The notes under the pieces: model-generated | Seen by the model: the letters and a program-made list of their open reading frames with translations, nothing else | Told to the model about the DNA's origin: nothing | The model's database searches: none | Translations under genes and position numbers: made by a program | From: Synechococcus sp. | GTDB lineage: Bacteria > Cyanobacteriota > Cyanobacteriia > PCC-6307 > Cyanobiaceae | NCBI GenBank assembly: GCA_047284725.1 | Contig: JBJBEO010000001.1 | Location: forward strand, 1,752,203 to 1,816,202 | Direction: 5' to 3' | Length of the DNA: 64,000 nt | Part shown: one piece after another, positions 36,935 through 64,000 of the stretch | Position numbering within the stretch: the stretch's first letter is position 1 | Layout: each line of letters starts with the position of its first letter

Positions 36935-37045
36935 TCACAGAAAATAGCCATATAACACAAAAAGCCAGCAAAGACAATCAAACCGCCCAAATTGGTGACA
37001 CCTCGAAACACGGTGTTACGATCCTTAACAGTTTTTGCACCGCGG

Positions 37046-41729: not shown

Positions 41730-42215
41730 CTAGAACGCTGCAGCCATCAGACCGTCGGGACTGCCTGCTGCGCTCGCGTCCTGCCCGACCCCACTGGGGA
41801 TGGTCAACAACATGTTCCCAGCCAGGCACAGGCTTCCATCGCTGCCACGCACGAGATGCGACGAGATCTCTTCATCGAAACGGATTCCCAAGCCACAATC
41901 CGACTGACCGAACATGGAGCCGGGATTGGTGTATTTGATGACGCCCGTTACAACGACATCGTCTTGCTCACGATTGTCATGCAGATGAATCGTGATGCTT
42001 TCACCCTGGGCTGGCTTCCACTGTCCAGCCACCACGACGACGTAAATGCCAGACAAGCTGATGTCCAGCAAATCCGCATAAAAGATTTCACAATCAGCCG
42101 TCATGATCTTGATGACGTAATCGCTTTGAATCACGAAACGCTTGCGAGCCCTTCGTCCATCACCACCTGCTTCTCTTCGGCTCTTACGCCTGTCAGGAAT
42201 CCTGGTGTAGCTCAT
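41730..42215 (-). CDS. PilZ-domain protein
   Basis: DRRKSRR (RxxxR) and DISLSG (DxSxxG), ending GLGIRF. Confidence 0.7.
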   Translation of the reverse strand: MSYTRIPDRRKSRREAGGDGRRARKRFVIQSDYVIKIMTADCEIFYADLLDISLSGIYVVVVAGQWKPAQGESITIHLHDNREQDDVVVTGVIKYTNPGSMFGQSDCGLGIRFDEEISSHLVRGSDGSLCLAGNMLLTIPSGVGQDASAAGSPDGLMAAAF

Positions 42216-42472
42216 ACACTCTCTAAATGAAGTTGACTGAACAACGAAGCAATCGCCTAAATCAATAGGCAAATAGGCAAGAATTCCTACTGCAAAAACC
42301 CTGCATAAATCAAGTATGTGCCTTAACGAGAAGCCACAGGTCCACTGCAAGTGAAAAAAGACTGAGAATATGACTAAAGCCCCCACAGAAGACTGGACGT
42401 CTCCATCAACGGGTCTGCGGCAGCCGACACAGGGCTGCCAACACGTCACACCTGGCCACTAAGCGACTTCAA

Positions 42473-43072
42473 TCATCGCTGTTCACTTGAACGTTCCCTC
42501 GGAAACCGATACCAACGAAGCGCATAGCCAAGCTTGACCGCCTCTCCATCAACCTTGATCTCCAGCATGTCCGGACGGCCTGGGTAAAGTTCAAACCCCT
42601 CGGGCAGCGTCAGACTGAGCGATTTTCCCTGTTTGAGGATGCCTTCATACAACGTTTTTGCGGACAGATCGCGGATTTCCATCCAGCAATCGCTTTTCGC
42701 CAGGATCGTTGCTGAAATCAGGTTGCTGGCAGGGGAGACGCTCTCGATTGGCTGATCATCCTGACTCCGTGACCCTTGGCGCAGATGGTTGTAAGCGAGA
42801 AGACTCCCCACTGCCGCAGTGAAGACAACCATCAGAATGACGACCCGTTGGCGATGACGGGCCAGAAACGATCCAAGACCTGCCAGATCAGGAAAGTCCA
42901 GTCTTGGACGCTTTCTCGACTGCGCATCCGGTGACTTTGGCAAGCTTTTCTGCTCAGGCTTCGGCCTTGATTTGGACCAATTCAAGAGATCTTTTTCGGT
43001 GATTCCCAGAAGCCGATCAATCTCTCCGGGCTTATTCAGCAGTCGTTCAATTTCATGATCTTTTGGATCCAT
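42473..43072 (-). CDS. Membrane protein with RodZ C-terminal-like (DUF4115) domain
   Basis: TM helix followed by CWMEIRD...LYEGILKQG...GRPDMLEIKVDG. Confidence 0.7.
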   Translation of the reverse strand: MDPKDHEIERLLNKPGEIDRLLGITEKDLLNWSKSRPKPEQKSLPKSPDAQSRKRPRLDFPDLAGLGSFLARHRQRVVILMVVFTAAVGSLLAYNHLRQGSRSQDDQPIESVSPASNLISATILAKSDCWMEIRDLSAKTLYEGILKQGKSLSLTLPEGFELYPGRPDMLEIKVDGEAVKLGYALRWYRFPRERSSEQR

Positions 43073-44000: not shown

Positions 44001-44783
44001 ATGCAGAACGTCACCCCCAACCAACCGGGTGCCCAGGCAAGCCTGACCATCATTGCCGCCTTCACAGCTCTGATCATCGCGGTGGCCTCAGTCTTCGTCG
44101 TGCCAGCCGGAGAAGTCGCCGTGATCACAACGCTGGGCAAAGTGAGCGAAGCACCGCGGGTTCCAGGCCTCAACCTCAAAGCGCCCTTCCTGCAATCCGT
44201 GCACTTCTTCAATGTGCGCACCCAGGTGCGACCGGAGGAATTTTCCAGCCTCACCAAGGATCTGCAGGTGATCGAAGCCACGGCCACGATCAAATACGCC
44301 GTCAAACAAACGGAAGCACCTCGGGTCTACAGCACGATCTCCACGGGCAATGAGGGGATCTACGCCCGCATCATTCAGCCCTCACTGCTCAAGTCTCTGA
44401 AATCGGTGTTTTCAAAGTACGAACTGGTGGAAATTGCCACCGACTGGAACACCATTTCCTCCATTGTTGAAACGAGTGTGGCCAAGGAACTGGAAAAATT
44501 TGACTACGTCGATGTGAAGGGTCTGGATCTCACTGGCCTCAAGATTGCTGAGGAATACCGTTCAGCCATCGAGCAGAAGCAAATCGCCGAACAGCGTCTA
44601 CTGAAGGCCGAAACCGAAGTGAAGATCGCTGAGCAGGAAGCGATCAAATTTGAAACACTCAACAAGGGCCTCAACGAACGGGTGCTCTACAAACTCTTCC
44701 TCGACAAATGGGATGGGCAGACACAAGTGGTGCCTGGCCTATCCGGTGCAGGAACCCCGCCGGTGATCGTGGGGCGGTCGTGA
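44001..44783 (+). CDS. Prohibitin/SPFH family protein
   Basis: VVPAGE, SLTKDLQ, AIEQKQIAEQ, KWDG. Confidence 0.9.
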   Translation: MQNVTPNQPGAQASLTIIAAFTALIIAVASVFVVPAGEVAVITTLGKVSEAPRVPGLNLKAPFLQSVHFFNVRTQVRPEEFSSLTKDLQVIEATATIKYAVKQTEAPRVYSTISTGNEGIYARIIQPSLLKSLKSVFSKYELVEIATDWNTISSIVETSVAKELEKFDYVDVKGLDLTGLKIAEEYRSAIEQKQIAEQRLLKAETEVKIAEQEAIKFETLNKGLNERVLYKLFLDKWDGQTQVVPGLSGAGTPPVIVGRS

Positions 44784-49203: not shown

Positions 49204-50241
49204 ATGATCCGCTTCAATCTCTCATCGTCAGCCCTGACGTTTCTTGGACTTCTCACACCTTTAGGGCTCACTGTCGCCTATCCACTGTCCGCCGAAGCAG
49301 GTGCTGGCCACAACCACGGTGGAGGCTCCGAGGAAGAACTTGAGAGCGGCGAATTTCGTTCCATGCCGGTGATCACCCTCGAAGGCCATGGTGGTTATGA
49401 AAACAACCTCGAAGGCAAACCAGCCCACTACGCCATTGATGGGATGTTCGGCGCAGTGATGGAATGGGGGCTTCCAAATCAGGGCAGTTTCGCGATTGAG
49501 GCCGCCATCGGACCAGCCTTGGTCTGGGGTGAAGCCGAGCACTTCTATGGCCGGGTTGAACTGGAAGAAGAGGAAGGCGAGGAAGCCCATGGCGACGAGG
49601 ACCATGGTGATGAGGACCATGGCGACGAGGAGCATGGTGACGAGGATCACGCCGAACACGGCGAGGAGGGGCATGGCCACGCAGAGGGCCAGCCGTACCG
49701 ACGCATCGACATGAAGGGCATGCTTCAGGCCCGTTACCAACCCAACGATCGGCTGGCCATTTCAGCCACTTGGAAGCCTTACTTCGTCACCAAATCCCAG
49801 GGGGAAGACATTCAAGGCGTCAAGCACGAAGTGTCCGCCGACATCACCTATGCCTTCGGAGATGGAGACGTCAACTTTGCTCTGGGTGATGGCCTGGAAT
49901 CAGTGATCGATGGAGTTTTTGTGTCGGTCAGCAACCACTCGGGCTGGGAGAGTGATGGCGTTTACCTCGGCAACTACACCGACACCAGGGCAGGGTTTGG
50001 CTTCAATTACGACCAGCTCAACGTCACCCTGACCGGTGGGCCACGCTTCTATACACCCGGCTCCTATTCAGGCCTCTCTCAACGCACGGACTGGGGCGGC
50101 GAGATTGCCCTGGAATACCCCATTTCTGATTCGGTCATTGCGTTCGCCCACTGGGAAGCGGTTTACAGCACCGCCTCCGGCGAGGGTTGGGGCAAAGGAT
50201 TCCAAAACCACGTCGGCACTGGATTAACGTTCCGCTTCTAA
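49204..50241 (+). CDS. His/acidic-rich putative outer-membrane beta-barrel protein
   Basis: Signal peptide, GHNHGG, (HGDED)n insert, alternating beta strands, terminal GLTFRF. Confidence 0.75.
   Translation: MIRFNLSSSALTFLGLLTPLGLTVAYPLSAEAGAGHNHGGGSEEELESGEFRSMPVITLEGHGGYENNLEGKPAHYAIDGMFGAVMEWGLPNQGSFAIEAAIGPALVWGEAEHFYGRVELEEEEGEEAHGDEDHGDEDHGDEEHGDEDHAEHGEEGHGHAEGQPYRRIDMKGMLQARYQPNDRLAISATWKPYFVTKSQGEDIQGVKHEVSADITYAFGDGDVNFALGDGLESVIDGVFVSVSNHSGWESDGVYLGNYTDTRAGFGFNYDQLNVTLTGGPRFYTPGSYSGLSQRTDWGGEIALEYPISDSVIAFAHWEAVYSTASGEGWGKGFQNHVGTGLTFRF
49588..49647 (+). repeat. 15-bp coding tandem repeat x4 (HGDE[D/E])
   Basis: CATGGYGAYGAGGAN repeated four times. Confidence 0.9.
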
Positions 50242-51472: not shown

Positions 51473-51631
51473 GCTGCTTTTCCTGACTGACTCTATTCAG
51501 CCAACACAGCCGCAACTCAACTGTACGCATTGATACAAAACCGACGTTCATGCGCCAAGGTCCCCAGCCGTTCAGACCCGCGATCCAGTTGGATTAACTT
51601 GACGAAATCAGAAACCGCGACAGGCATCTCG

Positions 51632-52375
51632 TTGGTTCTTCATCGCTTCAAACGCTGTCATTGCCACACCCAGCAGCGGGGGTTCAGCACCCAGCAGGTC
51701 CTCCTCATTCTGCTGGTGGTGTTTCCCCTGGGATGCATCGCCCTGGGACTGATCCTCAACGGGGTGATGCAACGCAGCAAGACGTCAGAAGCGACGGAAC
51801 CAGAACCCCCATCAACCATCGCTGCCAAACCGGAACCGATGGAAGCCGCCGGTGATCCGGATCCAAGCCAGGTTGAAACAGCCCAGCAGGACGCTCCACA
51901 GGCAGCACCAGCAGCGAGCGACACAGTGGAGCTCGGGGCCTCCGTGACGGGTGTTCCAATCCGGTTGCTGATGCAAAGCATCAACACGCGCGACAGGCAA
52001 TTCCGGGACTTTCAATATCAGCTCGGCAGCAGCACCGTTGCGGCGATGGCCAACTGCACCGATCAAAGCTGGACGAGTTACCCGGAGCGCCAGCTGAATC
52101 GGCCCCAGTCCCCCGCGACGGAGCGCATGCTCAGGCTGGTGTGCGGGACAACCAACGAGGCCGACCCGCCAGCCCCATTACCAGACCCTGCTTTTCCCGG
52201 GGTGGCGATCGTGTTCGACCCACCCAGCAATGTGCGCAGGAGCCCAGGCGGAGCCTTTCTTTGCACCGTCAACAACCCGCGCAGCATCCGCGTCGGTCAG
52301 GCCCAGGGTGAGTGGTACCCCACCTCGGCGTGTGGACCCCAGGGGTTCATCCATCGCAGCCAGGTGCGCTTCTGA
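51632..52375 (+). CDS. Membrane protein with GFSTQQ leader and C-terminal SH3b-like domain
   Basis: GFSTQQVLLILLVVFPLG, Pro-rich linker, then VFDPPSNVR..P...GEWY..C..GFIHRSQV. Confidence 0.75.
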   Translation: MVLHRFKRCHCHTQQRGFSTQQVLLILLVVFPLGCIALGLILNGVMQRSKTSEATEPEPPSTIAAKPEPMEAAGDPDPSQVETAQQDAPQAAPAASDTVELGASVTGVPIRLLMQSINTRDRQFRDFQYQLGSSTVAAMANCTDQSWTSYPERQLNRPQSPATERMLRLVCGTTNEADPPAPLPDPAFPGVAIVFDPPSNVRRSPGGAFLCTVNNPRSIRVGQAQGEWYPTSACGPQGFIHRSQVRF

Positions 52376-52401
52376 TCAACACCTCCCCTGCAGGGCTTCC
52401 T

Positions 52402-52968
52402 ATGCCGATGCTCCCTCTCCGCCACCCCTCCACAGCAGGCTTCTCCAATCAACAGGCCCTTCTCGCCCTGCTGGTTGTCTTTCCGCTCGGAATGATGTGC
52501 ATCGGGATGGTGGTCACCCTGGCCCTGCGATCCACCTCCGCCTCCACAGCCCAGGCACCGGCGCCAGCAATCCAGACACCAGCCCCGAGTGCATCTCCAG
52601 CATCCGAGCAGCCAGAGACCGTCAGACCGGCCCCTGCCCCATCGACGCCCGTCAAACCCCTGGCGAATCCGGGATCGGCCAATCCAACTCCCAGCAGCGC
52701 CAACACCTGCTGGTTCCAGATGCAACGGGGAGGACCTCTGATCGGTGATCGTTGCAGCGTGACGCTACGGGTCAATGTCAACGGAGACCGGGTCTTTGAT
52801 GTGATTGAGCCTTCGGGCTTGAAGCGATCCGTGGTGCTGTGGGAGAACGATGACGTGGAAGTGTTCCTGAACGAACAGCGCTACACGGGAAGCTGGCTTG
52901 TGGATGATGAGGGCGATGTTCGCGTCAGCCTGGCCGGAGGCACCTTTGCATTTACGCCTCCTCGCTAG
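52402..52968 (+). CDS. Membrane protein with GFSNQQ leader and beta-rich C-terminal domain
   Basis: GFSNQQALLALLVVFPLG; Pro/Ser linker. Confidence 0.75.
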   Translation: MPMLPLRHPSTAGFSNQQALLALLVVFPLGMMCIGMVVTLALRSTSASTAQAPAPAIQTPAPSASPASEQPETVRPAPAPSTPVKPLANPGSANPTPSSANTCWFQMQRGGPLIGDRCSVTLRVNVNGDRVFDVIEPSGLKRSVVLWENDDVEVFLNEQRYTGSWLVDDEGDVRVSLAGGTFAFTPPR

Positions 52969-53573: not shown

Positions 53574-54458
53574 TCACAAGCCGGCCTGTCCATTGTCGAA
53601 GCGCTCAAAACCACAGAGACGCGCCGCCGCTTGATACTCAGGGTCGAAGCGATCCCAACGGAAACTGCGGGGATCGTAGCGACTATGGCTGCGGTCAATC
53701 GCCTGATGGGTCGTCAGGCGTGTCAGAGGAATTCCGAACTTGGCCTGCCACAGCAACACCTGGCCAGCCAGATTGCGGTATTGCGCAGAGGTGTAGCCCG
53801 AGTGGCCACTGCGATCATCCCGACCATCAACTGGCGAAACAAGACTGATATGCAAAGCGATGTTATTCACCGAGCCAACACTGGACGCTTTGGTGCGCTG
53901 GGTGACATCACCAAACGCCGACATGCCAGCACCGTAGGCGCGCTTTTCATCGGGGACGATGCGCAACCGTGCGCCATCGCGTGCAATCAACATGTGATAA
54001 CTGGCCTGATCAGCATCGTTGGGATGCGGCGTCTGAAAGAAGGCCACCGTGGCTTTCTCACTGATCACGGTTTCATGCAGCACGATCAGCAACGGCTCAG
54101 CCTGAAGAGCACGGTTCCAGGCATCGACAACTTTGCGTTCGCCGAAATTCGTGGCATCGGCCAGTTGATCCATCTCTGCTGTCAGCGCGAGCGTCTTGGC
54201 ACAGCTGGCGATCTCCTGCGCCGACGCAGGAGGCAAACCAGCATCGGCCAGTGTCATCACAGGCGGAAGGGTCAGACCCTGTTTCGGGCTTTGCCCCTTG
54301 CCCCGGACTGAGCCGTCGTCGTTGGGATTGGTATGCCCGCTGATGGAGGGATGCTGCGGATCACCCGCCCCTTGCCAGGGGAAACGAAACGGCAACGACG
54401 TGCAGCCGCTGAGCAGGATCAGAGCTGCGGCAACAGACAACGAACGAACAAGAGTCAT
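53574..54458 (-). CDS. N-acetylmuramoyl-L-alanine amidase (Amidase_2) lipoprotein
   Basis: LSGC lipobox; IVLHET, ASYH, RAYGAG, TTH..D, DP. Confidence 0.85.
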   Translation of the reverse strand: MTLVRSLSVAAALILLSGCTSLPFRFPWQGAGDPQHPSISGHTNPNDDGSVRGKGQSPKQGLTLPPVMTLADAGLPPASAQEIASCAKTLALTAEMDQLADATNFGERKVVDAWNRALQAEPLLIVLHETVISEKATVAFFQTPHPNDADQASYHMLIARDGARLRIVPDEKRAYGAGMSAFGDVTQRTKASSVGSVNNIALHISLVSPVDGRDDRSGHSGYTSAQYRNLAGQVLLWQAKFGIPLTRLTTHQAIDRSHSRYDPRSFRWDRFDPEYQAAARLCGFERFDNGQAGL

Positions 54459-55118
54459 TTACTGCTTGCGATAGTCCCAGATTTTCCAGCGACCAGACTC
54501 TTCTTTGAGGGTGTAAATCCAGTCTTTGGTACTTGAGGACGTTTCACTGCCCTTGGGCGAGTGCAGATTGGAAACCTCGGTCACCGACACGACAATCGAA
54601 GGCATCGAAGGGGACGGCAAATAGCGGATCACCCGATTCACCTTGATAGTGGAATAGCTGTAATAGCTGTTGTTGTTCTTGAGCCACTGGATGGATCCAT
54701 CCGGCTTGGTTAAATCGGTCCATAAAGGTCCAGCCGCCACCACCTGATCAGCCAGATCGGTGTTGAAAGGCGGAGCGAAGATCTGAGATTTCACCGTCAA
54801 CCACTCCTCCACGATGGCTCTGGCTTGCTCCTGGGTGAGACCAGATGGCTGAGGAGCCGGCTGCTTCTGCGGGGGCAGCGGCTGAATCGTGGTGGATCGC
54901 TCAGAGGACTCCGGTCGCTCCACCGGCTGGGGAGCTGGAGCAGGGGCGGGGGCCGTCGCCACCGTGCTCTGACGCTGCAGCAGCACGATCACCAGCCCCA
55001 GCGCCACCAGGCCGAGGGGAAACAGCAGCAGCAGAACCAGCAGGGCTTGCTGGTTACTGAATCCTTGATCACCGCGCAGCCGATGGCGGAAGCGGCTGAT
55101 TGGCGTTGAGCGACTCAC
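54459..55118 (-). CDS. Membrane protein with GFSNQQ leader and ARC6/IMS-like (DUF4101) domain
   Basis: GGAGG RBS + GTG; GFSNQQALLVLLLLFPLG; A..IV..WL..K..IFAPPF...WLKNNNSYY...V.E...Y.L....WKIWDY. Confidence 0.8.
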   Translation of the reverse strand: MSRSTPISRFRHRLRGDQGFSNQQALLVLLLLFPLGLVALGLVIVLLQRQSTVATAPAPAPAPQPVERPESSERSTTIQPLPPQKQPAPQPSGLTQEQARAIVEEWLTVKSQIFAPPFNTDLADQVVAAGPLWTDLTKPDGSIQWLKNNNSYYSYSTIKVNRVIRYLPSPSMPSIVVSVTEVSNLHSPKGSETSSSTKDWIYTLKEESGRWKIWDYRKQ

Positions 55119-55241
55119 AGAATGACCTCCGGGAACAACGTGGTCAAAGCAGCTGCACCGTGCCTGTCGTGCCACACCCAAAGCAAGGCCATTGGACAAA
55201 CGGTCACAATGATGCACTGATCAGGATCGGAACCAGGGTGA

Positions 55242-56132
55242 TTGAAGCAGGTGCCATCAACCAGAGCCGGCGTGTCTCCTGATCCAAAGCGTCAACCCGG
55301 ACCATGGCCAGCACTGGGTTCCTGGGCTGCGATTCAGCTCCTGCATCAGGCTCCAGCCCAGGCAGCATGGGACCTGCGCCACGCAGCGGCTGTTGAAGAT
55401 CTCCTGAACGACTACATCAAGACGCTGCCTGAGGGAGCCAGCATGCCGGCGCCGAGGCTCTTCCTCTACAAAGGCACTGCGTTTTCAAGGGCCTGCCCAG
55501 GATCCGGCATCGAGGCCCCCGCCTACTGCCCTGGGGATCACACCGTTTATCTGGAAATGGGGCTGGGCGATCAAGTGGCCACCATGTACGGAGATTTCGG
55601 AGCCCTGTCGATCCTGTCGCATGAATTCGGCCACGCCTACATGAGTCAACGCCAGCTGCATCCCCCGGGCAAACAGGGAGAGCTGGCCGCTGATGGTTTC
55701 GCCGGAGGGTTCGCCCGTTATGTCGAGCAACTGGGGCTTCTGGAAGCCGGTGACATCGATGAAGCCCGCGCCACCTTTGCCGCCGTTGGCGACTATCAGG
55801 TGTATCACCATGATCACCACGGCACCCCCAACGAGCGCCGTCAGGCCTTTGAGGCCGGCTACCAGCAAGGGTTCCGTCTGCCGGGGGAGCCACCCACAGC
55901 TCAACCGCCCACAGTTCAATCACCAACCGCTCAACCACCGAGAGCACAACCCCAGCAACCCGCGCCCCAACCCGACCAACCGGCGATCGTTCCCTCTCCG
56001 ATTCCTGGTCAGGCCAACCAGGTCAGCGCCGTTGGTCCCGTCCTTGGCCTCGGCCTCGGCGTTGTTTTCATCGCCTTGATGTTGATCGCCGTTGTCACGC
56101 TGATCAACAGGGCCCGTGATGAAGAGTTTTAA
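55242..56132 (+). CDS. Neutral zinc metallopeptidase (YpfJ-like) with C-terminal TM
   Basis: PAYCP.D, HEFGH, ELAADGFAG, HGT..ER. Start uncertain. Confidence 0.85.
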   Translation: MKQVPSTRAGVSPDPKRQPGPWPALGSWAAIQLLHQAPAQAAWDLRHAAAVEDLLNDYIKTLPEGASMPAPRLFLYKGTAFSRACPGSGIEAPAYCPGDHTVYLEMGLGDQVATMYGDFGALSILSHEFGHAYMSQRQLHPPGKQGELAADGFAGGFARYVEQLGLLEAGDIDEARATFAAVGDYQVYHHDHHGTPNERRQAFEAGYQQGFRLPGEPPTAQPPTVQSPTAQPPRAQPQQPAPQPDQPAIVPSPIPGQANQVSAVGPVLGLGLGVVFIALMLIAVVTLINRARDEEF

Positions 56133-56637
56133 AACCACAGTTCCAACCCCCACAGGGTTCAGCAACCAGCACGCCCTGCTGGTGCTGTTGATTCTGTTTC
56201 CTCTGGGCTTGATGGCCATCGGCAGCCTCGCCGTTCTGTGGTTGAAACAGCCGTCCGTTGTTGCTGACACCCCTTCCAAACCAACCGCCACCGAACCCAA
56301 CCAACCTCAGGCCAGGACCAATGCCAATTCCAATTCCAACGATCACAACAAGACCACCCCAGTCCCTGATCTGATCGCGTTGCAGGAGCAACGCCTGAAT
56401 GACCTTGCCGATGCCATTTTCTGGCGGCGCCATCCATCCCTGCAAGGCGTCAAATTGAGTGGTCAAACAGGCGACTTAGCCCGTGAATGGAGCCGGATCC
56501 GCCACTGCGACGCCATCGTTGATGATCGTTTTTATCGCCTCCATCCACACATGCGCGGACGCACGATCCAGCCGAACCAGACGGAGCTGGCGGCGAGCTG
56601 GCAACGCTTGCGCGATCAAGTCGAGGGTTGCTCCTGA
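56119..56637 (+). CDS. Membrane protein with GFSNQH leader and internally repeated helical domain
   Basis: GFSNQHALLVLLILFPLG; repeats D.IFWRRHPSLQG..L...W and D.RFYRLHPHMRG..I...W. Confidence 0.75.
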   Translation: MKSFKTTVPTPTGFSNQHALLVLLILFPLGLMAIGSLAVLWLKQPSVVADTPSKPTATEPNQPQARTNANSNSNDHNKTTPVPDLIALQEQRLNDLADAIFWRRHPSLQGVKLSGQTGDLAREWSRIRHCDAIVDDRFYRLHPHMRGRTIQPNQTELAASWQRLRDQVEGCS

Positions 56638-57551
56638 ACGCTCGCACGCGTCGAGCGCGGCCGCAGAACCACGACACCGATCGATGCAGGAACCGAGCGC
56701 ACATACGCAGCAAACGGATGCGAGCGGATCACCCCCTTCCCAGGCACGGCATGGATGGCTGACACGCCATCGGCATCACGCACCACAACACCCATATGCG
56801 TGACATCAAGCCCAGGAACGGACGTGGCAATCGCAAACAGATCACCATTCTGGAAGGAACGACTCGCCAGTTCCAGACCATCATTGGGGAGATAGATCTG
56901 TTCAATCGTCAGACGACGCTCCTTCTCTTGAATGCAGCGGAGCGTTGAAGGCGTCTGCAACGGGGAATAGAGAGACGGATGGTCCGACATATAGGTGAGA
57001 TTCAAGACGCGTCGCTGATGACCGGCCACCTCATCCGTGACATCCTCAACCCATCCCTGATCAGCGGCCGATGCCGCCCAGCTCTGGAAATAATGATGAC
57101 GCGAGCAGTAATCAACACGGCCCGCCTCGTATCGCATGGTTTGCGTTGTCGCCACAAACGATGGCCAATCGGATGACACAGCCAGCGCCAGAAGTTGCTC
57201 AACCAACAACATGCAATCAAAACGTGTCAGATCAACGCGCAATCGCTCTGCGCCCCCTTCATCCAGGGAAAAGGCGACATAGGGAGTGCCGAGAAACGAC
57301 TGAGCCAGGGAAGCGACGGTCTGAGCAGGCTCGAGCTCACGCATCCATCCCTTGATCTCGGAATACAACTCCTCACTGCCGGGAGCGACCTGCACCTGCG
57401 GATCCGACGCAGGACGATCCGACGCCAGGGCCGATGGCCCGATCGCACGCTGACGCTGCGGGTTGAACGGCTGATCGGCGGCAAGGCCACCTGCCGCCGA
57501 AAGAGAGACCACCAAACCCGCAAGCCCCATCCACCGGCGTGCACGCATCAC
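56616..57551 (-). CDS. DUF1460 / NlpC-P60-like amidase
   Basis: FLGTPY, FDCMLLVE, Y..R.HYF..W, GLDVTHMG, HA. Confidence 0.85.
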   Translation of the reverse strand: MMRARRWMGLAGLVVSLSAAGGLAADQPFNPQRQRAIGPSALASDRPASDPQVQVAPGSEELYSEIKGWMRELEPAQTVASLAQSFLGTPYVAFSLDEGGAERLRVDLTRFDCMLLVEQLLALAVSSDWPSFVATTQTMRYEAGRVDYCSRHHYFQSWAASAADQGWVEDVTDEVAGHQRRVLNLTYMSDHPSLYSPLQTPSTLRCIQEKERRLTIEQIYLPNDGLELASRSFQNGDLFAIATSVPGLDVTHMGVVVRDADGVSAIHAVPGKGVIRSHPFAAYVRSVPASIGVVVLRPRSTRASVQEQPST

Positions 57552-57626: not shown

Positions 57627-58919
57627 TTGACTCCGAAATCGTTCTGCCTATCGCTGCGATGCGGACTCTCAACGACGGCCATCGCCATGGTGATCAGCGG
57701 CTGCGCCTCCGCACAACTGCCCAGTTGCGTGATCGGCCTGGAGGCACCCACCCCAGAGCAACGTCAGCGCTGGGAGGCTGCTCCTCAGGTCACCAGCCTC
57801 GACCTGGGCATTGATGGCAGCAGTTCCATGTTGGGGCTCACAGGCTCAGCCGACAGCGCACGGGCCTGGAAGGGCCTGCTCAAAGGCGTCAGCCTGGGTG
57901 CCGCGGCCAACGGGCTCAGCCTGAAGACCCAACGCATCGGCAGCGGTCGCGGCAGCACGGTCTCCAGCCCGATGCAAGCCGCCGACGCCTGTTTCTTTCA
58001 GGGGTGTGGTGCCTTTGCAGCGGTGACCTCCAGCCTTGAATCGCTCTGGAGCAGCCCAGGCCTCAGCCAGGGCAAGCCACCTCTTCGCCTCGCCATCAGC
58101 GATCTGGAGGTGAACGATGGCGACATCGCCAACCTCGTGGGAGCCATCCGACCACATGTGGAGCAGGGAGCCGTGATCGGCGTGCTTGCCGTTCGGCTGC
58201 CATTCGCAGGCAGGGTGTACAACAGCCAGGGCACCGTGATCCACGAGGGCACAGCGGAACGCCCCACCTACCTGCTGGCGACAGGGCCGCGCTCCCAGGT
58301 GCACAACCTGCTCAAAGACGTGAAAACGAAAGCAGCCCTGGCGGGGGTGCCGACAGGCTCCATGCACCTCACCCTGCTGGATGAGCAGGCCAATGCACCC
58401 ACCCTGGTGGCGAAGAGCATCGCGGGCGACAACAGCGGTTACGGCCAGCCGTTGCGTCTCGGAACAACCACCTTCAGCCCGAGTGGCAATGGAAAGTACC
58501 AATTCGCAAGGCTGTTTGAGGGAGCCAATCGTGTCGTTCTCAGCAGCGGAGTGGGCGTCAGCGCCCAAGCGCCGCTGCTGCCCGACCTCGGCCTGATCAA
58601 TGTGCTGCCGGTGGCCTTGCCTGGCACCTCAAGCCACAGCAGCGGCGTGGATGTGGATGGATTCCAGGTGAACGGCACTGACTTGAGCGTGGGCTTGGGG
58701 ATCGCCGACACCACCATCGGCGGGGCCGTGCGGGCGACGGTTGCTCGCGGCCAACTTCCGGAAAGCTGGTGGGTGCGTTGGAATCGCCTGACCCCCAAAG
58801 CAGAGGACGCACGGAATCAAACTGACGGATTATTGCTGTTGCTCACAAGTTTGAGCCAGTTGATGGTTCAAAATGGCACCACTCCAGCCGCGTCTCTCTG
58901 CCTGGCTTTCAGTCGGTAA
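57627..58919 (+). CDS. Lipoprotein with vWA-like (MIDAS) domain
   Basis: ISGC lipobox, IDGSSSM (DxSxS), AISDLE, F.G.VY...RP.Y. Confidence 0.7.
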   Translation: MTPKSFCLSLRCGLSTTAIAMVISGCASAQLPSCVIGLEAPTPEQRQRWEAAPQVTSLDLGIDGSSSMLGLTGSADSARAWKGLLKGVSLGAAANGLSLKTQRIGSGRGSTVSSPMQAADACFFQGCGAFAAVTSSLESLWSSPGLSQGKPPLRLAISDLEVNDGDIANLVGAIRPHVEQGAVIGVLAVRLPFAGRVYNSQGTVIHEGTAERPTYLLATGPRSQVHNLLKDVKTKAALAGVPTGSMHLTLLDEQANAPTLVAKSIAGDNSGYGQPLRLGTTTFSPSGNGKYQFARLFEGANRVVLSSGVGVSAQAPLLPDLGLINVLPVALPGTSSHSSGVDVDGFQVNGTDLSVGLGIADTTIGGAVRATVARGQLPESWWVRWNRLTPKAEDARNQTDGLLLLLTSLSQLMVQNGTTPAASLCLAFSR

Positions 58920-58934
58920 TTCCTGACCAGAACG

Positions 58935-59471
58935 ATGCGAATTCTGCAGTTCATCACCCTTGCCCTGTCGGTTGCTCTTGGCATGGTGTGGATTTTTATT
59001 GTTCAAAACTCGATCTTTCTGCATGTTTTGGCTGGTCCCTTGAGTGGACCTGGCATGAATGTTGTTGACTTCCTGCAGATCGGCAGCAGTCCCGCCTTCA
59101 CCGTGTTCTGGGCTGGCTGCATCTCAGCGCTGCTGATCTGGTTTGTGATCACGCTGAGCTCGCGCCCCCGCAGCTCCGCCCAGACCCGGGGCATGCAACC
59201 GATGTGGTGGCTGGCAGCGGCCCTGCTCACCCTGTTCGGCTGGCTGTGCCTGGGCTGGTTCACAGCATTCAGCTGGACCATGAGTGGTGTCAGCCCGATC
59301 GCAGGCTCTGCTCAACTCTTTTTTCCACTTCCCCCGGGTGGGTGGCTGATGCTGATGGGATTTGTGATGCTCGATGTGATCCTGCTGTTCTGGTTACCCA
59401 CCCTGGTCGCGTCGCCTCGCACCTACCGCTTCGTGGTGCCCGGAGCCGTCACCCTTCTGGGCAGTCGCTGA
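58935..59471 (+). CDS. Integral membrane protein (about 4 TM)
   Basis: Hydrophobic ORF ending 1 bp before the tubulin-like gene. Confidence 0.8.
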   Translation: MRILQFITLALSVALGMVWIFIVQNSIFLHVLAGPLSGPGMNVVDFLQIGSSPAFTVFWAGCISALLIWFVITLSSRPRSSAQTRGMQPMWWLAAALLTLFGWLCLGWFTAFSWTMSGVSPIAGSAQLFFPLPPGGWLMLMGFVMLDVILLFWLPTLVASPRTYRFVVPGAVTLLGSR

Positions 59472-59472
59472 G

Positions 59473-60972
59473 ATGAAACAGATTTTCGCCATCGGCGTCG
59501 GCGGCACCGGCGCTAAATGCATCGAGGCGCTGGTGCATCTCCATGCCTGCGGATTGCTCACCGATCAAGACGGCAACCCAGCCCGATTGGGGGTGTTTCT
59601 GGTGGAGCCGGATCAGCAGAGTGCTCTGCTGCTCCGTGCCCAGACAGCGATCAACCGCTACGGCTCCCTGCGCCGGGCCGTGGGACGTCAAAGCGACCGG
59701 TTTGCCCGCGCCGAACTGCGGGATTACGGCCAGTGGAGTCCACTGAGCACAGCCTCCGGTGCCATCAGCCTCGATCAGGTCTTCCCCAAGGCGGTGCTGC
59801 GCACCCAGGCGCCAGGGGTGGCGGCTTTGTTTGATTGCCTCTTCCCCCCCGAGGAGCAGAGTGCCGACCTGGAAGTGGGGTTCCGCGGCCGACCACCGAT
59901 CGGATCGGCAGTGATGAGCCGCATCAGCCTCGAGCAGGAGGCTCAGGTGGGCCAATGGCAGCAGATGCTGAGCGACATCCAGACCGCCGCCGGCAGCGGC
60001 GAAGCACCGGTGGTGCATCTCTTCGGCAGTGTGTTCGGCGGCACCGGCGCCTCCGGGGTCCCCACCCTCGGCCAGCTGCTCAAAAACTGGCTGAAGCGAC
60101 AGGGGCTCACCAGCGTCCAGGTGCAGGCGTCACTGCTGCTGCCCTACTTCGATTTCGAGGGGATGGCCGACGACGACACCGGTGTGCACGCCGAATCACG
60201 CAACTTCCAGCTCAACACGGACGCCGCCCTGCAGTACCTCCGCACCAGCGGTCGCGCCTGCTTCGATCGGGTCTATCTGGTGGGGAGCGACATCAAGGCG
60301 CGCTACGGCTTCAGCATCGGTGGCACGTCCCAATCGAATGCCGCCCACATGGTGGAACTGCTGGCGGCCCTCGGGGTGTGTCATCCCGGCACGACAAGCA
60401 ATGGCTATGCCCATGTGCTCAGCCGGACGGAGCAGCAGAGCATGGGCTGGGAAGACCTGCCCGACAACGAGATGGTGGGCGATGCCCTGGCCCGCGGCGC
60501 TCGCTTCGCCGTGGCATGGCGCAACAACATCACCCGTGAGATCAATGAGGCCCAGAAGGTGCCGATGCGCACCTTCCTCAGTGGTGCGCCATGGGCGCGG
60601 CGCTTCTTCCATCCTTCCGGGTCGGGCACCGACCGAGGCATGCGGCCTGGCATCCGTGACAAGGAACAGCTCACGGTGCAGAACGCCATTGATCAGTACT
60701 GCGACACACTGCTGCAGTGGCTCAACCAGGTTTCGAGCAACCTCGGCAGTGGATTCCGCCAGGAGCTGTTCACCGCCTCACTGCTAAGGCCCAGTGACCG
60801 CTTCGAGAACAACCTCAGCCGCGTGGTGAAAGGCAAGGCGAGGCCCCGCCGCCCCGAAGCCTCCGACACGGTGGAAGCGATCAAGGTGCGGATGGATCAG
60901 CTCAAGAGTGATGCCATCTCCCATCGCGGCATGGCCGGCCTTGCCGATTGTCTCTGGTCTCTTGTGGTCTGA
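59473..60972 (+). CDS. Divergent FtsZ/tubulin-like GTPase (Tubulin_2-type)
   Basis: T1-like IGVGGTG, GFRGRPPIG, T4 signature GSVFGGTGASG, LLLPYF, GG.SQ.N..H..EL.AAL. Confidence 0.85.
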   Translation: MKQIFAIGVGGTGAKCIEALVHLHACGLLTDQDGNPARLGVFLVEPDQQSALLLRAQTAINRYGSLRRAVGRQSDRFARAELRDYGQWSPLSTASGAISLDQVFPKAVLRTQAPGVAALFDCLFPPEEQSADLEVGFRGRPPIGSAVMSRISLEQEAQVGQWQQMLSDIQTAAGSGEAPVVHLFGSVFGGTGASGVPTLGQLLKNWLKRQGLTSVQVQASLLLPYFDFEGMADDDTGVHAESRNFQLNTDAALQYLRTSGRACFDRVYLVGSDIKARYGFSIGGTSQSNAAHMVELLAALGVCHPGTTSNGYAHVLSRTEQQSMGWEDLPDNEMVGDALARGARFAVAWRNNITREINEAQKVPMRTFLSGAPWARRFFHPSGSGTDRGMRPGIRDKEQLTVQNAIDQYCDTLLQWLNQVSSNLGSGFRQELFTASLLRPSDRFENNLSRVVKGKARPRRPEASDTVEAIKVRMDQLKSDAISHRGMAGLADCLWSLVV

Positions 60973-61016
60973 ACCCACAACAGTCGTTCGATCACTCCCC
61001 AGCACCCTCTCAAGCC

Positions 61017-64000
61017 ATGACCTCCTCTCCCTCGCAGGACATCGTTCAGATTCCCTGGTTCCCGAAAACCGATCCACCCCTCGGAGGCGGAGCCCAGGCT
61101 GGGGAATGGCAGGGGCGTGACCAGCAGAGCCTCGGCACGATCGCCAAGAGCCTCGTCTACGAGGTGGCGACATCACGGGTGAATTCACTGCCATCGCCCT
61201 GGTCACGGGCACTGCAGTTCGAGCAGGCGGTGCTGAACTCGCGCTACCCCACGCGCGATTCCCTGCTGGAGGAGCTGTTTGGGGGCATGGCCTGTCTCGG
61301 CCTCTGGGAGATGTTTGGCCTGCGCCTCGATGCCCAGCGGGTCTCCCTGCTGGACCATGCCGACCTGCAGGACGATGCGGTCGGGCCGTTCTCCCGCAGC
61401 CTGGCCGCCTCGCTCCCTGATGGACGCAACGCCCTGTCACGCCAACCGGAGGGACGGAACCCCTGGGAAGTGGTGTATGTGTTCACCCTGCAGGGAAGCG
61501 TGGTGGGCTTCAGCTCCCCCAGCACGCTGTTCTGCCCGGCCGTTCACCTGCCTCAGCCGATTCAGGGGATGGGCTGGACCAACAGCGGACGCTTCACCTC
61601 CCCCGTGGATTTTCTGGGTGCTCCCCAGCGCCAGGCCCTGGGGGATTGGTTCAGCCACGTGAAAAACGGCATGCTCAATGCGAGCGATCTGCACAGTCAG
61701 ACCAGCGCTGGACAGATGGCCGAAGTGCTGGATCTGTTCATTCACCGGCTCACCGCGGGCCGGCTCGGCACGCCCACCCTGTCCGACACCGGACGGGTCG
61801 CCAATCTTCCCTCCAATCCGGTGGCCCTGTCGCTGCTGGCCAGGCCGGCCAAAGGCGGCGTCAGCGCCAGCCAGGCAACGCTGGAACTGGGCGATCGGCT
61901 CCAGGCACCGCTCGGTGACACCCCCGCCAGCCAGCCGGTGGTGCTGGTGGACCCCGACATGCCCAACAAGCTTGGGGTGAGCGCGGCCGACATCTGCCTC
62001 TACAAATCGGCGACGTTGGAGTCGATCGGCTTCGATCCAGGCCAGCTCGATCGCCAGTACGGCAAAGAGATCACGGTGCTCACCCCTGATCAGATCTTTC
62101 TGGATGAGCTCTATCTGGTCGCAGGAGAACAAGCGCTTCAGAACTCCTGGCTTCCCAGCCGGCTGGAGGGCGTGCCGCGGGTGAACGGCGAGGCTGTCAC
62201 CCCCCTGCTCCCCCTGCGTCCGGAGATCCGCCGACTGTTCAGCAGCCGTGAGCTCAGGGAGCGCTGCCAGCTGCGGGTGATGCAATCCAGCGTCAGCAAT
62301 GAGGTGGAAGTGAGGCTCAGCCTTCCCCTGCAAGGCCAGCGTGAGGGCTATTCGCTGGCTCGCTCCTACCCCCTGAAGGAGCAGAACCTGGTGGCGGAAG
62401 ACCTGCCCGTGATCACCCTCTGGCCCTACGTCAGCGATGAACGCTGGCGCCTCTATTACCTGTTCTGCGAAGACAGTCCGTCGGCGCTGACCGTGGATGG
62501 CTTCAGCGATTACGACCGCAAGCTGGGCCGAGATAACCAGCAGGTGGTGAAGTATTTCACCACCCAGCACTTCCCCGACCTGGTGCGCCTGAGCGAGCGC
62601 GGTCAGGATCGAGGCCTGCTGCCGGTGACCCCGCCGGCCTCGTGCCCGGATGTGGGCACCCAGTGGCAGGTCGGCATCGACTTCGGCACCTCCTTCACCA
62701 ACTTCTTCATCGATGAGGGGGGCGGGCCGGAGCGCCGGCACCTCGAGACACGGGTGATTTCCCTCACCCTGTCGCAGAAGGAAGAACGTCAGCGACTGCT
62801 CAACCAGTACTTCGTTCCCGAGGAAATGCTGCCCAACACCGACAGGGCCAGCAATCCCCCCACCGCCACGGCCATCAGCCTGCGCGGCTGGCAGGAAGTG
62901 CTCGGTCAGGTGCCTGAGCTCTTCCATGAGGCCCGGCTGCGGGTGCCCAGCCCCGGTGAATTCGGTGGGGCTGAATTACGCACGGGCTTCAAATGGGAGC
63001 AGATGCAGTACCAGAAACCCTTCCTTAAAGAGGTGGCGCTGCTGGTCAGTGCCAACGCCGCTGCCAACGGTGCCCAGGAACTGCAGTGGTCGGTGTCGTA
63101 TCCCAGCGCCTTCTCCCCCAATGAAGTGGCCCGCTACCGGCGGGTGTGGGTCGAGCTCTGCGATGACCTCAACCAACTCACCGGCCTGCGCCATGCCCTC
63201 AATGCCAAAGCCGGAGAGGGGGGACTGCAAACCGAGGCTGTGGCCTTCGCCAGCTACTTCGGCAACTTCCAGAACCGCCAGATGGTGCACACCTCCTGCC
63301 TCGACGTGGGTGGAGGCACCACCGACATCTCGATCTGGCAAGACAACCGACTGATCCATCAGGTGTCTGTGCCGTTTGCAGGGCGCGACATCAGTTCGCA
63401 GCTGCTGCGCCGCAAACCGTCGTTCCTCAAGTCGCTGTTTCCACCGAGCCTCACCGCCGACATCAGCGACGACGAAGCCAAAGCCCGTCAGGACCGCAAC
63501 TTCACCAGCCGCCTCGACAACATCATGCGCTACGGCTCCGATGAGCTGCTCGCCGGCCGGCTCGACATGCTGGTGAATCAGGAGTCGACCCTTCAGGAAC
63601 CGCTGCAGCAATTCCTCAGTCTGCTGTCGGTGAGTTTTGCGGGGATCTACCACTACCTGGGTCAGGTGCAGCAGGTGCTGCGCGACGAAGGCAAACTGAC
63701 CCGTCGCACGCCGACGCCGGTCTACATCGGTGGCAATGGCGGACGTTTGATCAACTGGATTGATGCCAGTTCTCGTTTCCAGAAGGGGGGCGATCCCGAC
63801 CGCCTGATGGAGCGGATGCAGATCAAGGCCTCCGGATGCGACGCCGGCAACGCCTGCACCACCCTGTCGGATGCCTACAAGGATGAAACCGCCTGCGGCC
63901 TGATCAGTTCGGGCGTGAATCTGATCGGCGACTTTGATCCCCGTGACGACGTCATGGTCTGCGGGGCCAGTCTGGTGGTGAATGACCTGCACTTCGCGTG
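61017..64000 (+). CDS. Large protein (>990 aa, 3'-partial) with actin/Hsp70-fold ATPase domain
   Basis: Starts MTSSPSQDIV. In-frame motifs: SLPSPWSR, VGIDFGTSFT (62670), TEAVA, LDVGGGTTD (63300), YIGGNGG (63723). Absent from the ORF track, consistent with no stop before the window end. Confidence 0.85.
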   Translation, partial: MTSSPSQDIVQIPWFPKTDPPLGGGAQAGEWQGRDQQSLGTIAKSLVYEVATSRVNSLPSPWSRALQFEQAVLNSRYPTRDSLLEELFGGMACLGLWEMFGLRLDAQRVSLLDHADLQDDAVGPFSRSLAASLPDGRNALSRQPEGRNPWEVVYVFTLQGSVVGFSSPSTLFCPAVHLPQPIQGMGWTNSGRFTSPVDFLGAPQRQALGDWFSHVKNGMLNASDLHSQTSAGQMAEVLDLFIHRLTAGRLGTPTLSDTGRVANLPSNPVALSLLARPAKGGVSASQATLELGDRLQAPLGDTPASQPVVLVDPDMPNKLGVSAADICLYKSATLESIGFDPGQLDRQYGKEITVLTPDQIFLDELYLVAGEQALQNSWLPSRLEGVPRVNGEAVTPLLPLRPEIRRLFSSRELRERCQLRVMQSSVSNEVEVRLSLPLQGQREGYSLARSYPLKEQNLVAEDLPVITLWPYVSDERWRLYYLFCEDSPSALTVDGFSDYDRKLGRDNQQVVKYFTTQHFPDLVRLSERGQDRGLLPVTPPASCPDVGTQWQVGIDFGTSFTNFFIDEGGGPERRHLETRVISLTLSQKEERQRLLNQYFVPEEMLPNTDRASNPPTATAISLRGWQEVLGQVPELFHEARLRVPSPGEFGGAELRTGFKWEQMQYQKPFLKEVALLVSANAAANGAQELQWSVSYPSAFSPNEVARYRRVWVELCDDLNQLTGLRHALNAKAGEGGLQTEAVAFASYFGNFQNRQMVHTSCLDVGGGTTDISIWQDNRLIHQVSVPFAGRDISSQLLRRKPSFLKSLFPPSLTADISDDEAKARQDRNFTSRLDNIMRYGSDELLAGRLDMLVNQESTLQEPLQQFLSLLSVSFAGIYHYLGQVQQVLRDEGKLTRRTPTPVYIGGNGGRLINWIDASSRFQKGGDPDRLMERMQIKASGCDAGNACTTLSDAYKDETACGLISSGVNLIGDFDPRDDVMVCGASLVVNDLHFA

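Follow-up and report, generated by a model that had tools for sequence, protein, structure and literature searches.

The locus described here lies at the end of a 64,000-nt stretch of a Synechococcus sp. contig (JBJBEO010000001.1), the whole of which is called the window, and consists of four tightly spaced genes on the + strand. In operon order they encode a lipoprotein (LIPO, P0001), a membrane protein (TM, P0002), a tubulin-like protein (TUB, P0003) and a very large actin-fold protein (GIANT, P0004); their coordinates are listed in Table 1. The listing of open reading frames (ORFs) confirmed the layout given in an initial annotation made from the letters of the window, with intergenic gaps of 15, 1 and 44 nt, the single nucleotide separating the TM stop from the TUB start. 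The motifs quoted in that annotation (GVGGTG, GSVFGGTGASG, IDFGTS, EAVA, DVGGGTTD and GGNG) were all found in the translations. The operon had been described there as tubulin-like, actin-fold, lipoprotein and membrane protein, a listing corrected here to the gene order given above, and the von Willebrand factor A (vWA) label for the lipoprotein was not confirmed. We read the four genes as the first part of a larger cassette, LIPO-TM-TUB-GIANT-E, often followed by a stator pair resembling ZorA and ZorB. Judged from gene neighbourhoods and structural models, it is highly probable that the cassette has this architecture and that TUB and GIANT form a complex.

The initial annotation had allowed that the frame starting at 61017 might be interrupted. 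This frame was followed without interruption through base 63998, and the gene is cut by the window end. Full-length GIANT relatives are 1087–1118 aa long, so approximately 104 residues of GIANT fall beyond the window, which contains 994 of approximately 1098. In relatives, the operon itself extends past GIANT, that is, beyond what the window shows. The promoter scan gave no sigma-70-like site, terminator-like sites were unconvincing, and a tRNA scan of the window returned none. The G+C content of the operon was approximately 0.62–0.66. Close homologues bear Synechococcus, Cyanobium or Prochlorococcaceae names, which fits the picocyanobacterial host proposed at the outset. The RefSeq names of the cassette genes are 'hypothetical' or 'tubulin-like doman-containing protein'.

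Against Pfam, TUB matched Tubulin_2 (PF13809) at 31.3 bits (gathering score 27), with only residues 163–257 covered. Almost every close homologue has the same family as its precomputed assignment. The exhaustive search yielded 1637 relatives (50% clusters) at E<=1e-3, mostly of approximately 460–560 aa among the 150 listed; no relative was found in the phage collection. The AlphaFold2 model of TUB had a predicted local distance difference test score (pLDDT) of 89 and a predicted template modelling score of 0.92. Searched against the PDB with Foldseek, it gave at least 160 matches at E<=1e-3, and among the matches listed all were to tubulin, FtsZ, CetZ, TubZ or OdinTubulin with a probability of 1.00. 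The TM-scores of these matches were low, 0.21–0.28 when normalised to the query and at most 0.43 when normalised to the target. The tubulin fold first recognised from motifs is borne out by this model and its matches. Two of the relatives, P0264 and P0267, carried a helical N-terminal extension of approximately 260 aa without a match to the family hidden Markov models (HMMs) of the cassette.

In an alignment of 32 diverse TUB members, several motifs were invariant: G10, G11 and G13 of GGxG (10–13), GFRGRPxIG (136–144), SxFGGTGxxG with S186, F188, G189, G190, T191, G192 and G195, and P224 and F226 of LPYF (223–226). We take GGTG to be loop T1, GFRGRPxIG to be T3-like, GGTGASG to be T4 and LPYF to be T5-like, so that the signature loops T1, T3, T4 and T5 of the tubulin/FtsZ superfamily are all found. 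Past approximately residue 330, the model was all-helical. No Asp or Glu was invariant after D328, and Glu295 was nearly invariant. The combination of an all-helical C-terminal half and no invariant acidic residue indicates that the beta-rich activation domain of FtsZ and tubulin and the T7 catalytic residue are missing. In neither the model nor the 32-member alignment was a C-terminal activation domain with a T7 loop for head-to-tail polymerisation found, in line with the initial remark that no FtsZ T7 loop was obvious. On the model, TUB is a divergent tubulin/FtsZ-superfamily GTPase with an N-terminal GTPase domain carrying the GTP-binding loops.

The structure of GIANT was modelled on a full-length relative 96% identical to P0004, with a pLDDT of 86.5. 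The model comprised an N-terminal stretch of 58 residues at low confidence, an alpha/beta domain (approximately 63–300), a beta-rich region (approximately 300–545) and an actin fold (549–1098) with a short helical extension after the ATPase fold. The actin part starts approximately 550 residues after the ATG, as had been estimated. Foldseek returned at least 393 PDB matches at E<=1e-3, headed by DnaK, the BeeR filament, Mbl/MreB and the nucleotide-binding domains of Hsp70 and BiP. A search of PDB sequences with the GIANT family profile gave 8r2n (5e-7), an actin-family protein from the BeeR filament, followed by MreB (8.8e-5) and FtsA (2.5e-4), with DnaK only at 0.2. Across 34 members the invariant positions were D555-F-G557, E740, D763-x-G765...D770 and G906-N907, and the phosphate-1, connect-1, phosphate-2 and adenosine motifs of the ASKHA superfamily, which includes actin, FtsA and Hsp70, were all present. 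The model of the relative, the Foldseek matches and the PDB profile search together support the actin fold proposed from the motifs.

GIANT fell short of the curated Pfam and NCBIfam cut-offs for membership of the FtsA and MreB families. P0004 itself scored 23.5 bits against Pfam FtsA (cut-off 31.8) and 18.1 against TIGR01174 (cut-off 175.85). Among the 34 members, matches were seen to FtsA in 29, MreB_Mbl in 28, EutA in 11 and SrfB in four, all below the gathering scores; for MreB_Mbl the best E-value was 9.2e-6 and the highest score among the matches listed was 22.1 bits (cut-off 27). HSP70 (PF00012) matched none of the 34 at E<=1, and the Hsp70 substrate-binding domain was absent from the model. 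On this model-based evidence, 'actin-fold ATPase' fits GIANT, and 'Hsp70' and 'FtsA' as family names do not. A housekeeping FtsZ or FtsA identity for the pair was rejected on architecture and scores. An Atlas search with the GIANT N-terminus returned unnamed clusters and a weak SrfB lead (0.82; SrfB in 19% of the cluster members). This lead was traced to nothing more than the shared actin-fold motif.

Two observations on other GIANT genes are recorded here. In locus L001 (3954–7313), GIANT was split into two ORFs of 497 and 606 aa, through a frameshift, a pseudogene or an assembly error in that metagenome-assembled genome. Extra large genes resembling GIANT or Hsp70/SrfB were present near the cassette at L019:1490–5131, L020:1890–6446, L024:258–2966 and L077:14237–16981. 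The product of the L019 gene (1214 aa) had a HEAT-ARM match, and that of the L077 gene (915 aa) scored 50 bits against HSP70 and 26.9 bits against SrfB.

The multimer modelling that the initial annotation had proposed for the tubulin–actin pair was performed with TUB and residues 1–500 of GIANT, alongside three controls. Binding was predicted: the complex scored 0.80 and the best of the controls 0.00. Of 157 solved complexes, 116 attained the mark used for such scores, as did two of 215 mismatched pairs, a calibration that is rough here, custom alignments having been used. Separate runs shared at least 92% of contacts, with a partner pLDDT of at least 83. On GIANT, the interface was formed by residues 11–66 and 107–179 (ATG numbering) and included the invariant W31, P59 and W62; the stretch 11–66 is conserved, yet was at low confidence in the monomer model. 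On TUB, it was formed by residues 103–126, 140–152, 193–205, 223–224 and 242–332, which take in the regions of loops T3, T4 and T5 and the invariant L123. By sequence, no like complex was found in the PDB (best E 0.41).

Natural fusions among the 150 listed TUB relatives join the same partners. P0310 (1341 aa) consists of TUB (1–486) and GIANT (503–1303); its conserved TUB C-terminus is followed, approximately 20 residues on, by the conserved N-terminal peptide of GIANT. In P0374, the partner fused to TUB is the N-terminus of GIANT; P0249 (664 aa) combines TM and TUB. All three sequences were contiguous and contained no X. A word-index search had brought up no fused, longer relatives of P0003, a negative of little weight; it was by the exhaustive search that the fusions were recovered. 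The computational case for an obligate tubulin-fold/actin-fold complex, as modelled, is unusually strong.

In tubulin and FtsZ, the face carrying the T3, T4 and T5 loops meets the next subunit of the protofilament. The predicted position of the GIANT N-terminal region on this nucleotide-loop face of TUB speaks for a GTP/ATP switch formed by the heterodimer, not for a filament. Based on the modelled geometry, we put the chances at about even that TUB is a GTP switch capped by GIANT and not a filament. A different arrangement, in which TUB and GIANT each form cytomotive filaments that segregate DNA or plasmids in the manner of TubZ and ParM, or that determine cell shape, would draw on the membership of both folds in filament-forming superfamilies, the BeeR and MreB filaments among the top fold matches of GIANT, and the carriage of some cassettes on plasmids. 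It is scarcely credible. TUB has neither the beta-rich C-terminal domain nor the conserved acidic T7 residue, the loop face is occupied by GIANT in the predicted complex, and the Gloeothece plasmid that bears the cassette already has ParA/ParB. No gene for a centromere-binding adaptor was seen, and a lipoprotein and a transmembrane protein are unsuited to segregation as partners. Segregation of the TubZ/ParM type was itself discarded because the partners are wrong.

Conservation of the cassette was surveyed in the best 80 of at least 568 confirmed loci (at least 600 matched stretches) from species-representative genomes. Of these, 58 were cyanobacterial (11 of them picocyanobacterial or Synechococcus spongiarum-type), five from Acidobacteriota, six from Poribacteria, seven from Selenomonadales, one from Bacteroidaceae, one from an alphaproteobacterium and two unclassified. 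Families were counted with HMMs built from clusters of the ORFs in the 80 loci and searched back against them. TM was found in 78 loci, directly upstream of the TUB gene. GIANT followed TUB in 72, and of the eight loci that lacked it, four ended at contig ends (L006, L037, L043 and L048). The four real absences (L074 and L078–L080) were all in Selenomonadales, where a LytR_cpsA_psr (LCP) ligase gene and a YrbL-like gene precede TM-TUB. LIPO was found in 60 loci (31 times on the same strand and 29 times divergently), E in 60, the ZorA-like gene in 21 and the ZorB-like gene in 22. TUB and GIANT were adjacent in at least six bacterial groups.

The pairwise identities of TUB and GIANT across 65 loci were correlated (r = 0.78), a value reached by none of 999 permutations in a Mantel test. 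This correlation indicates that the two genes were inherited together as a unit; it is not by itself evidence of interaction. The co-occurrence that the initial annotation expected in other genomes holds across phyla. With both folds found, the genes co-occurring and the frame from 61017 intact, none of the outcomes that the initial annotation had named as counting against its proposal was encountered. As a separate observation, a gene of the Uma2 family (putative restriction endonuclease; PADLOC PDC-S03) separates TUB from GIANT at L012:9433–10086 and L013:9495–10097, both cyanobacterial, and Uma2 genes flank the cassette in L033, L051, L069 and L070 and, by cluster membership, in L047 and L064.

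LIPO begins with a signal peptide and a lipobox, read from the sequence by eye as ...AIAMVISGC26, in which ISGC ends at Cys26. The lipobox Cys was nearly invariant across 33 family members, and LIPO thus has the features of a bacterial lipoprotein. Further invariant positions in the 33 members were D63 and S67 (D-G-x-x-S-M), D159 (T-D-L), G195, P213 and T399. The motif D63-x-S-x-S67 resembles a metal ion-dependent adhesion site (MIDAS), and the spacing of D63, S67 and D159 is plausible for that of a vWA domain. Profile searches of LIPO gave no match in Pfam, NCBIfam, PADLOC or the PDB, the sole PDB match of the family profile being a chance one to a de novo NTF2 protein. An Atlas search returned unnamed clusters only, and hhalign comparison with the vWA protein of a bona fide FtsZl1 operon was not significant (probability 3.7%). 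Of the initial label 'vWA lipoprotein', the second word was upheld; the first is tied to the MIDAS-like D-x-S-x-S motif, with no support from Pfam, the PDB or hhalign. From its sequence, LIPO may consist of a periplasmic domain of a divergent vWA-like kind and, after it, a C-terminal part rich in beta structure. In TM, Kyte-Doolittle windows gave four hydrophobic segments, predicted to be transmembrane, and TM is proposed from sequence to be the membrane anchor for TUB. NCBIfam and PADLOC searches with the four window proteins gave nothing useful.

Of the 63 loci with a + strand gene downstream of GIANT, 58 had a member of the E family as the next gene. E proteins combine a conserved C-terminal domain of approximately 120 aa with variable N-termini (transmembrane segments, coiled coil or zinc ribbon), and one to three transmembrane segments were predicted in 35 of 58 E proteins. 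One to five tandem E paralogues were present in filamentous and other cyanobacteria. These features would fit a chaperone-like sorting or export machine, in which the GIANT ATPase, gated by TUB, serves the periplasmic lipoprotein by inserting, extracting or delivering cargo, E proteins or others, at the inner membrane, as would the nucleotide-binding domains of DnaK, BiP and Hsp70 among the fold matches of GIANT. We consider such a machine improbable, since GIANT lacks an Hsp70 substrate-binding domain and a Pfam HSP70 match, its profile matches favour MreB, FtsA and BeeR, and no secretion-system component was recognised.

Where present, the penultimate gene of the cassette encodes a ZorA-like protein of 461–802 aa, similar to MotA/ExbB and with a long coiled-coil tail, and the last gene of these stator-bearing cassettes encodes a ZorB-like protein of 200–297 aa, similar to MotB/OmpA. 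The pair scored 28 bits against Pfam MotA_ExbB and 54 bits against OmpA, and in PADLOC up to 49 bits against ZorA and up to 69 bits against ZorB (ZorB1 68.8). An Asp at the start of the transmembrane helix was conserved in 18 of 19 ZorB-like proteins. The features that define the Zorya subunits ZorA and ZorB were found only in related loci, outside the window. By group, the ZorA-like gene was present in seven of 11 picocyanobacterial loci, all five from Acidobacteriota, all six from Poribacteria, the single locus from Bacteroidaceae, one of seven from Selenomonadales and one unclassified locus. In the other cyanobacterial loci whose downstream DNA reached 4 kb or more (28 loci), none was found. 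Among LIPO, TM, TUB, GIANT and E, no PADLOC match to ZorC/ZorD, ZorE or ZorF/ZorG was obtained, and a canonical Zorya system was ruled out, no Zor effectors being present. In the available account of Zorya, a long tail on ZorA typifies every subtype, and ZorAB, described as the only characterised long-tailed relatives of MotAB, detect perturbation of the envelope and pass a signal to partners in the cytosol (PMC11946911).

The Agl-Glt machine of Myxococcus, for which the text available describes a motor of the TolQR type, MreB, a small GTPase and CglB, a vWA lipoprotein (PMC9946355), has a parts list like that of the cassette, in which a GTPase and an actin-fold ATPase are accompanied by a proton-driven stator and a possibly vWA-like lipoprotein. 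By analogy, the cassette might drive surface motility or adhesion. This is very improbable: the resemblance is one of analogy only, neither adhesin repeats nor Glt-like proteins were seen, and the hosts, which we understand to include sponge symbionts, Microcystis and flagellated Selenomonadales, show no correlation with gliding or swimming.

The genes around the operon in the window are given in Table 1. Upstream lie two amidases, a Zn peptidase and an ARC6-like protein with a C-terminal IMS domain; the amidases and the peptidase may form a functional neighbourhood with the operon or may stand there by coincidence. Cell-wall genes also adjoin the cassette in unrelated contexts: the LCP ligase lies directly upstream of TM-TUB in Selenomonadales, a kinase fused to an IMS domain is found beside LIPO in L033, and an IMS protein and a serine hydrolase are encoded on a Picosynechococcus plasmid. 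These neighbours favour a housekeeping role, namely a lineage-maintained machine for remodelling the peptidoglycan, the membrane or the outer membrane, or for forming vesicles, whose NTPases would arrange or drive periplasmic partners through the lipoprotein and a peptidoglycan-anchored stator. The cyanobacterial pattern, which looks vertical with partial synteny, and the host groups, all of which we take to be diderms, are in keeping with it, and membrane remodelling was proposed for FtsZl1 operons with vWA, MotA/TolQ/ExbB and OmpA genes, as their available description has it (PMC2875224). Nevertheless, this role appears rather unlikely. The distribution is patchy and not universal, with plasmid-borne copies in five cyanobacterial records; neighbouring genes vary between loci; tandem variable E paralogues would be unusual for such a machine; and MotA-like subunits with a long tail have to date been described from Zorya alone, going by the part of the literature consulted (PMC11946911).

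Table 1. Genes and other features of the window
Feature	Coordinates	Strand	Description	Basis
LIPO (P0001)	57627..58919	+	430 aa, TTG start	ORF listing and translation
TM (P0002)	58935..59471	+	178 aa	ORF listing and translation
TUB (P0003)	59473..60972	+	499 aa	ORF listing and translation
GIANT (P0004)	61017..64000	+	ATG at residue 24 of frame 60948..63998, open at window end	
AmiA-like amidase	56616-57551	-	Divergent, upstream of operon	141 bits
Zn peptidase	55242-56132		Directly upstream region of operon	
ARC6-like IMS protein (small paralogue)	54459-55217	-	C-terminal IMS domain	67.7 bits
Amidase_2	53574-54458	-		61.5 bits
Small paralogue	56116-56637	+		
Small paralogue	52312-52968	+		
Small paralogue	51530-52375	+		
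Secreted protein	49204-50241	+	Acidic repeat; Phage_OMP-like C-terminal part	
SPFH gene	44001-44783			
G+C dip	42000-43000		0.516, surroundings 0.58-0.66	
Presumed carotenoid-related genes	36992-38002, 37899-38753	+		

Several further features of the window were noted. The four small paralogues, one of which is the IMS protein, share an N-terminal membrane anchor motif, GFSNQ[QH]ALLxLLxxFPLG. The secreted protein contains a strongly acidic His/Asp/Glu repeat (HGDEDHGDEDHGDEEHGDEDH), and its C-terminal part scored 26.5 (gathering score 27) against Phage_OMP, a cyanophage outer-membrane-protein-like beta barrel. The translations of the two carotenoid-related genes resemble those of an orange carotenoid protein and of a membrane protein of the beta-carotene ketolase type. 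In L007, the same SPFH gene lies approximately 3 kb from LIPO; the stretch from this gene to the operon is much longer in the window, suggesting a variable insertion zone.

In place of housekeeping envelope remodelling we favour, by analogy with Zorya, a role in conflict (anti-phage or other) or in the response to envelope damage, although the chances of this role stand a little below even. Hints of a conflict role come from carriage on plasmids, patchy spread over distant phyla, tandem variable E paralogues and nearby defence genes. The five plasmid-borne cyanobacterial records included large Picosynechococcus plasmids and a 47.5-kb mobilizable Gloeothece plasmid, and on the latter (PCC 7822) the cassette stands beside par and toxin–antitoxin-like genes. 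In the flanks within 8 kb, 130 of 292 ORFs were examined and 19 matched PADLOC at E<=1e-12. Approximately eight clear defence genes were found in eight loci: PbeC, a DRT reverse transcriptase, SduA, REase_II, an AriA/PtuA-like ATPase, mad3 and PDC-S03/Uma2. A staphylococcal-nuclease-like (SNase) gene adjoins LIPO in picocyanobacteria and Acidobacteriota (L003:4271–4945, L053:5195–5839 and, by cluster membership, L067:2859–3440) and may be an accessory effector.

Several points weigh against the conflict or damage-response role and the complex behind it. The contact between TUB and GIANT is a model prediction. The counts of flanking defence genes stand without a matched background control, and none of 24 picocyanobacterial flank ORFs matched PADLOC. 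LIPO, TM, TUB, GIANT and E match no PADLOC model, and no nuclease, protease, NADase or pore-forming domain was recognisable in the core proteins. TUB identity roughly tracks taxonomy in cyanobacteria and picocyanobacterial synteny is partly kept, so that the cassette looks vertically inherited and not like a shuffled defence island; the cell-wall genes recurring beside it in the window and in other loci weigh in the same direction. As to the stator, no ZorA-like gene was found in the 47 non-picocyanobacterial cyanobacterial loci, which gave two short matches to the ZorB model, the one inspected (L063) being without the conserved Asp. The nearest relative, L001 (87% TUB identity), and L004 lacked a stator in the DNA searched. 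PADLOC contains Zor models but none for MotAB, ExbBD or TolQR, so a best hit to ZorA or ZorB is biased.

For the favoured role, a mechanism can be outlined in which an inner-membrane-anchored, envelope-spanning machine is built around a two-nucleotide switch. The four-segment TM protein would tether TUB to the membrane, as suggested by its adjacency to TUB in nearly all loci and by the TM+TUB fusion. GIANT would contact TUB via its conserved N-terminal peptide and first domain, and its N-terminal region would cover the T3/T4/T5 loop face, the place of the next protofilament subunit. The ATPase domain of GIANT would then act on membrane-anchored E proteins. The lipoprotein, together with a long-tailed, peptidoglycan-anchored ZorAB-like stator driven by the proton-motive force where one is present, would couple envelope events to the cytoplasmic switch. 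Taken as a whole, an obligate tubulin/actin heterocomplex of this kind, with membrane-tethered TUB, its polymerisation face capped by GIANT, and the two-nucleotide switch serving as output or load of a Zorya-type stator and a periplasmic lipoprotein, is a model-based proposal that we judge clearly unlikely to hold in every part. If true, it would represent a class of envelope-spanning machine not recognised before, be it a form of Zorya-like immunity without a nuclease or a cytomotive envelope system of a new kind.

The cassette occurs widely among cyanobacteria, and at least five further bacterial groups have it too. Cyanobacteria, the picocyanobacteria among them, rank as major primary producers, and a conserved cassette of five to seven genes for 'hypothetical proteins' is a gap in their cell biology. 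TUB and GIANT would be the first tubulin-fold/actin-fold NTPase pair hard-wired together outside FtsZ-FtsA, as gene order, natural fusion and the predicted interface suggest, with a geometry that suggests capping over polymerisation. The link to a ZorAB-like stator would provide a second, independent context for what the long-tailed 5:2 motor signals to. The FtsZl1 prediction has stood without an experimental test since 2010. The short form of the cassette is compact, and strains of Picosynechococcus as well as Gloeothece PCC 7822 carry it on plasmids, which opens it to experiment.

Compared with known systems, the cassette shares with FtsZ-FtsA a tubulin-fold GTPase and an actin-fold ATPase at the inner membrane, and the weak family matches of GIANT are to FtsA and MreB. 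FtsA binds the C-terminal peptide of FtsZ, and FtsZ polymerises through its T7 loop. In contrast, the contact predicted here places the N-terminal region of GIANT on the nucleotide-loop face of TUB, TUB has no T7 domain, and GIANT is three times the size of FtsA. SrfB (PF07520, of the SrfABC operon; approximately 1000 aa) matched the phosphate-2 region of GIANT weakly in the four members mentioned (best E 0.028), with the match placed at positions 555–580 of 992. The srfABC loci are reported, in the part of the preprint available, to be flanked by vWA genes (bioRxiv 10.64898/2026.09.18.752743). However, the GIANT matches were far below the gathering score of 27.1 and SrfA- and SrfC-like partners were absent; these matches show no relationship of GIANT to SrfB other than in the fold.

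In the DO-GTPase/GAP1 systems, as far as their published description was available, tubulin- and HSP70-superfamily, vWA and transmembrane proteins were proposed as regulated multimerising components of conflict systems (Kaur et al. 2020, PMC7159879). The defining DO-GTPase and GAP1 are not present in the cassette, and in the same available text the tubulin and HSP70 themes are non-overlapping and the systems largely confined to Firmicutes and Actinobacteria (PMC7159879). The likeness to Zorya lies in the 21–22 of 80 loci that end in a long-tailed MotA/ExbB-like protein and a MotB-like protein with a transmembrane Asp and an OmpA-type peptidoglycan-binding part. Known here from genes alone, the pair would correspond to the ZorA5B2 layout as described for Zorya in the account available (PMC11946911). 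Unlike Zorya, the cassette has no relatives of ZorC, ZorD, ZorE, ZorF or ZorG by PADLOC, its cytoplasmic partners are NTPases and not DNA-binding or nuclease proteins, and most cyanobacterial versions lack the stator, which was not seen in the window either.

No description of the cassette was found in the literature searched, an absence that is not proof of none in print; the closest accounts were PMC2875224 and PMC7159879, and in PMC9871819 Tubulin_2 proteins serve only as an outgroup. The link drawn in the initial annotation to the FtsZ-like/vWA predictions was apt, P0003 passing the gathering score of Tubulin_2. FtsZl1 operons were predicted by Makarova and Koonin in 2010 to be membrane-remodelling systems, and in the text available FtsZl1 is likewise described as having a divergent tubulin/FtsZ GTPase domain with no recognisable T6-H7/T7 or C-terminal domain (PMC2875224). 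By the same account, these operons include vWA-type and membrane proteins and, in Deinococcus and cyanobacteria, also MotA/TolQ/ExbB-like and OmpA/MotB-like genes, and the Magnetospirillum FtsZl1 operon amb2957-2961 ends in a 1626-aa COG0443 DnaK-like protein (PMC2875224). The differences lie in the individual proteins. FtsZl1 is described there as approximately 1000 aa (763–1208 among those listed), its N-terminal domain being followed by an extended coiled coil and a C-terminal domain that is helical (PMC2875224), whereas P0003, at 499 aa and with no coiled coil, does not have this architecture. Aligned by hhalign with a bona fide FtsZl1 from Nostoc punctiforme (pNPUN01), the P0003 family matched over 33 columns around GGTG with a probability of 69%. 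The four-segment membrane protein, GIANT and E fall outside families A1-A2 and B1-B9 as these are described in the available text (PMC2875224), and LIPO is not a recognisable COG2304 vWA protein; a lipoprotein with a DxSxS-like motif adjoins in 60 of 80 loci. The cassette is a variant of the predicted FtsZl1-type systems that is itself new.

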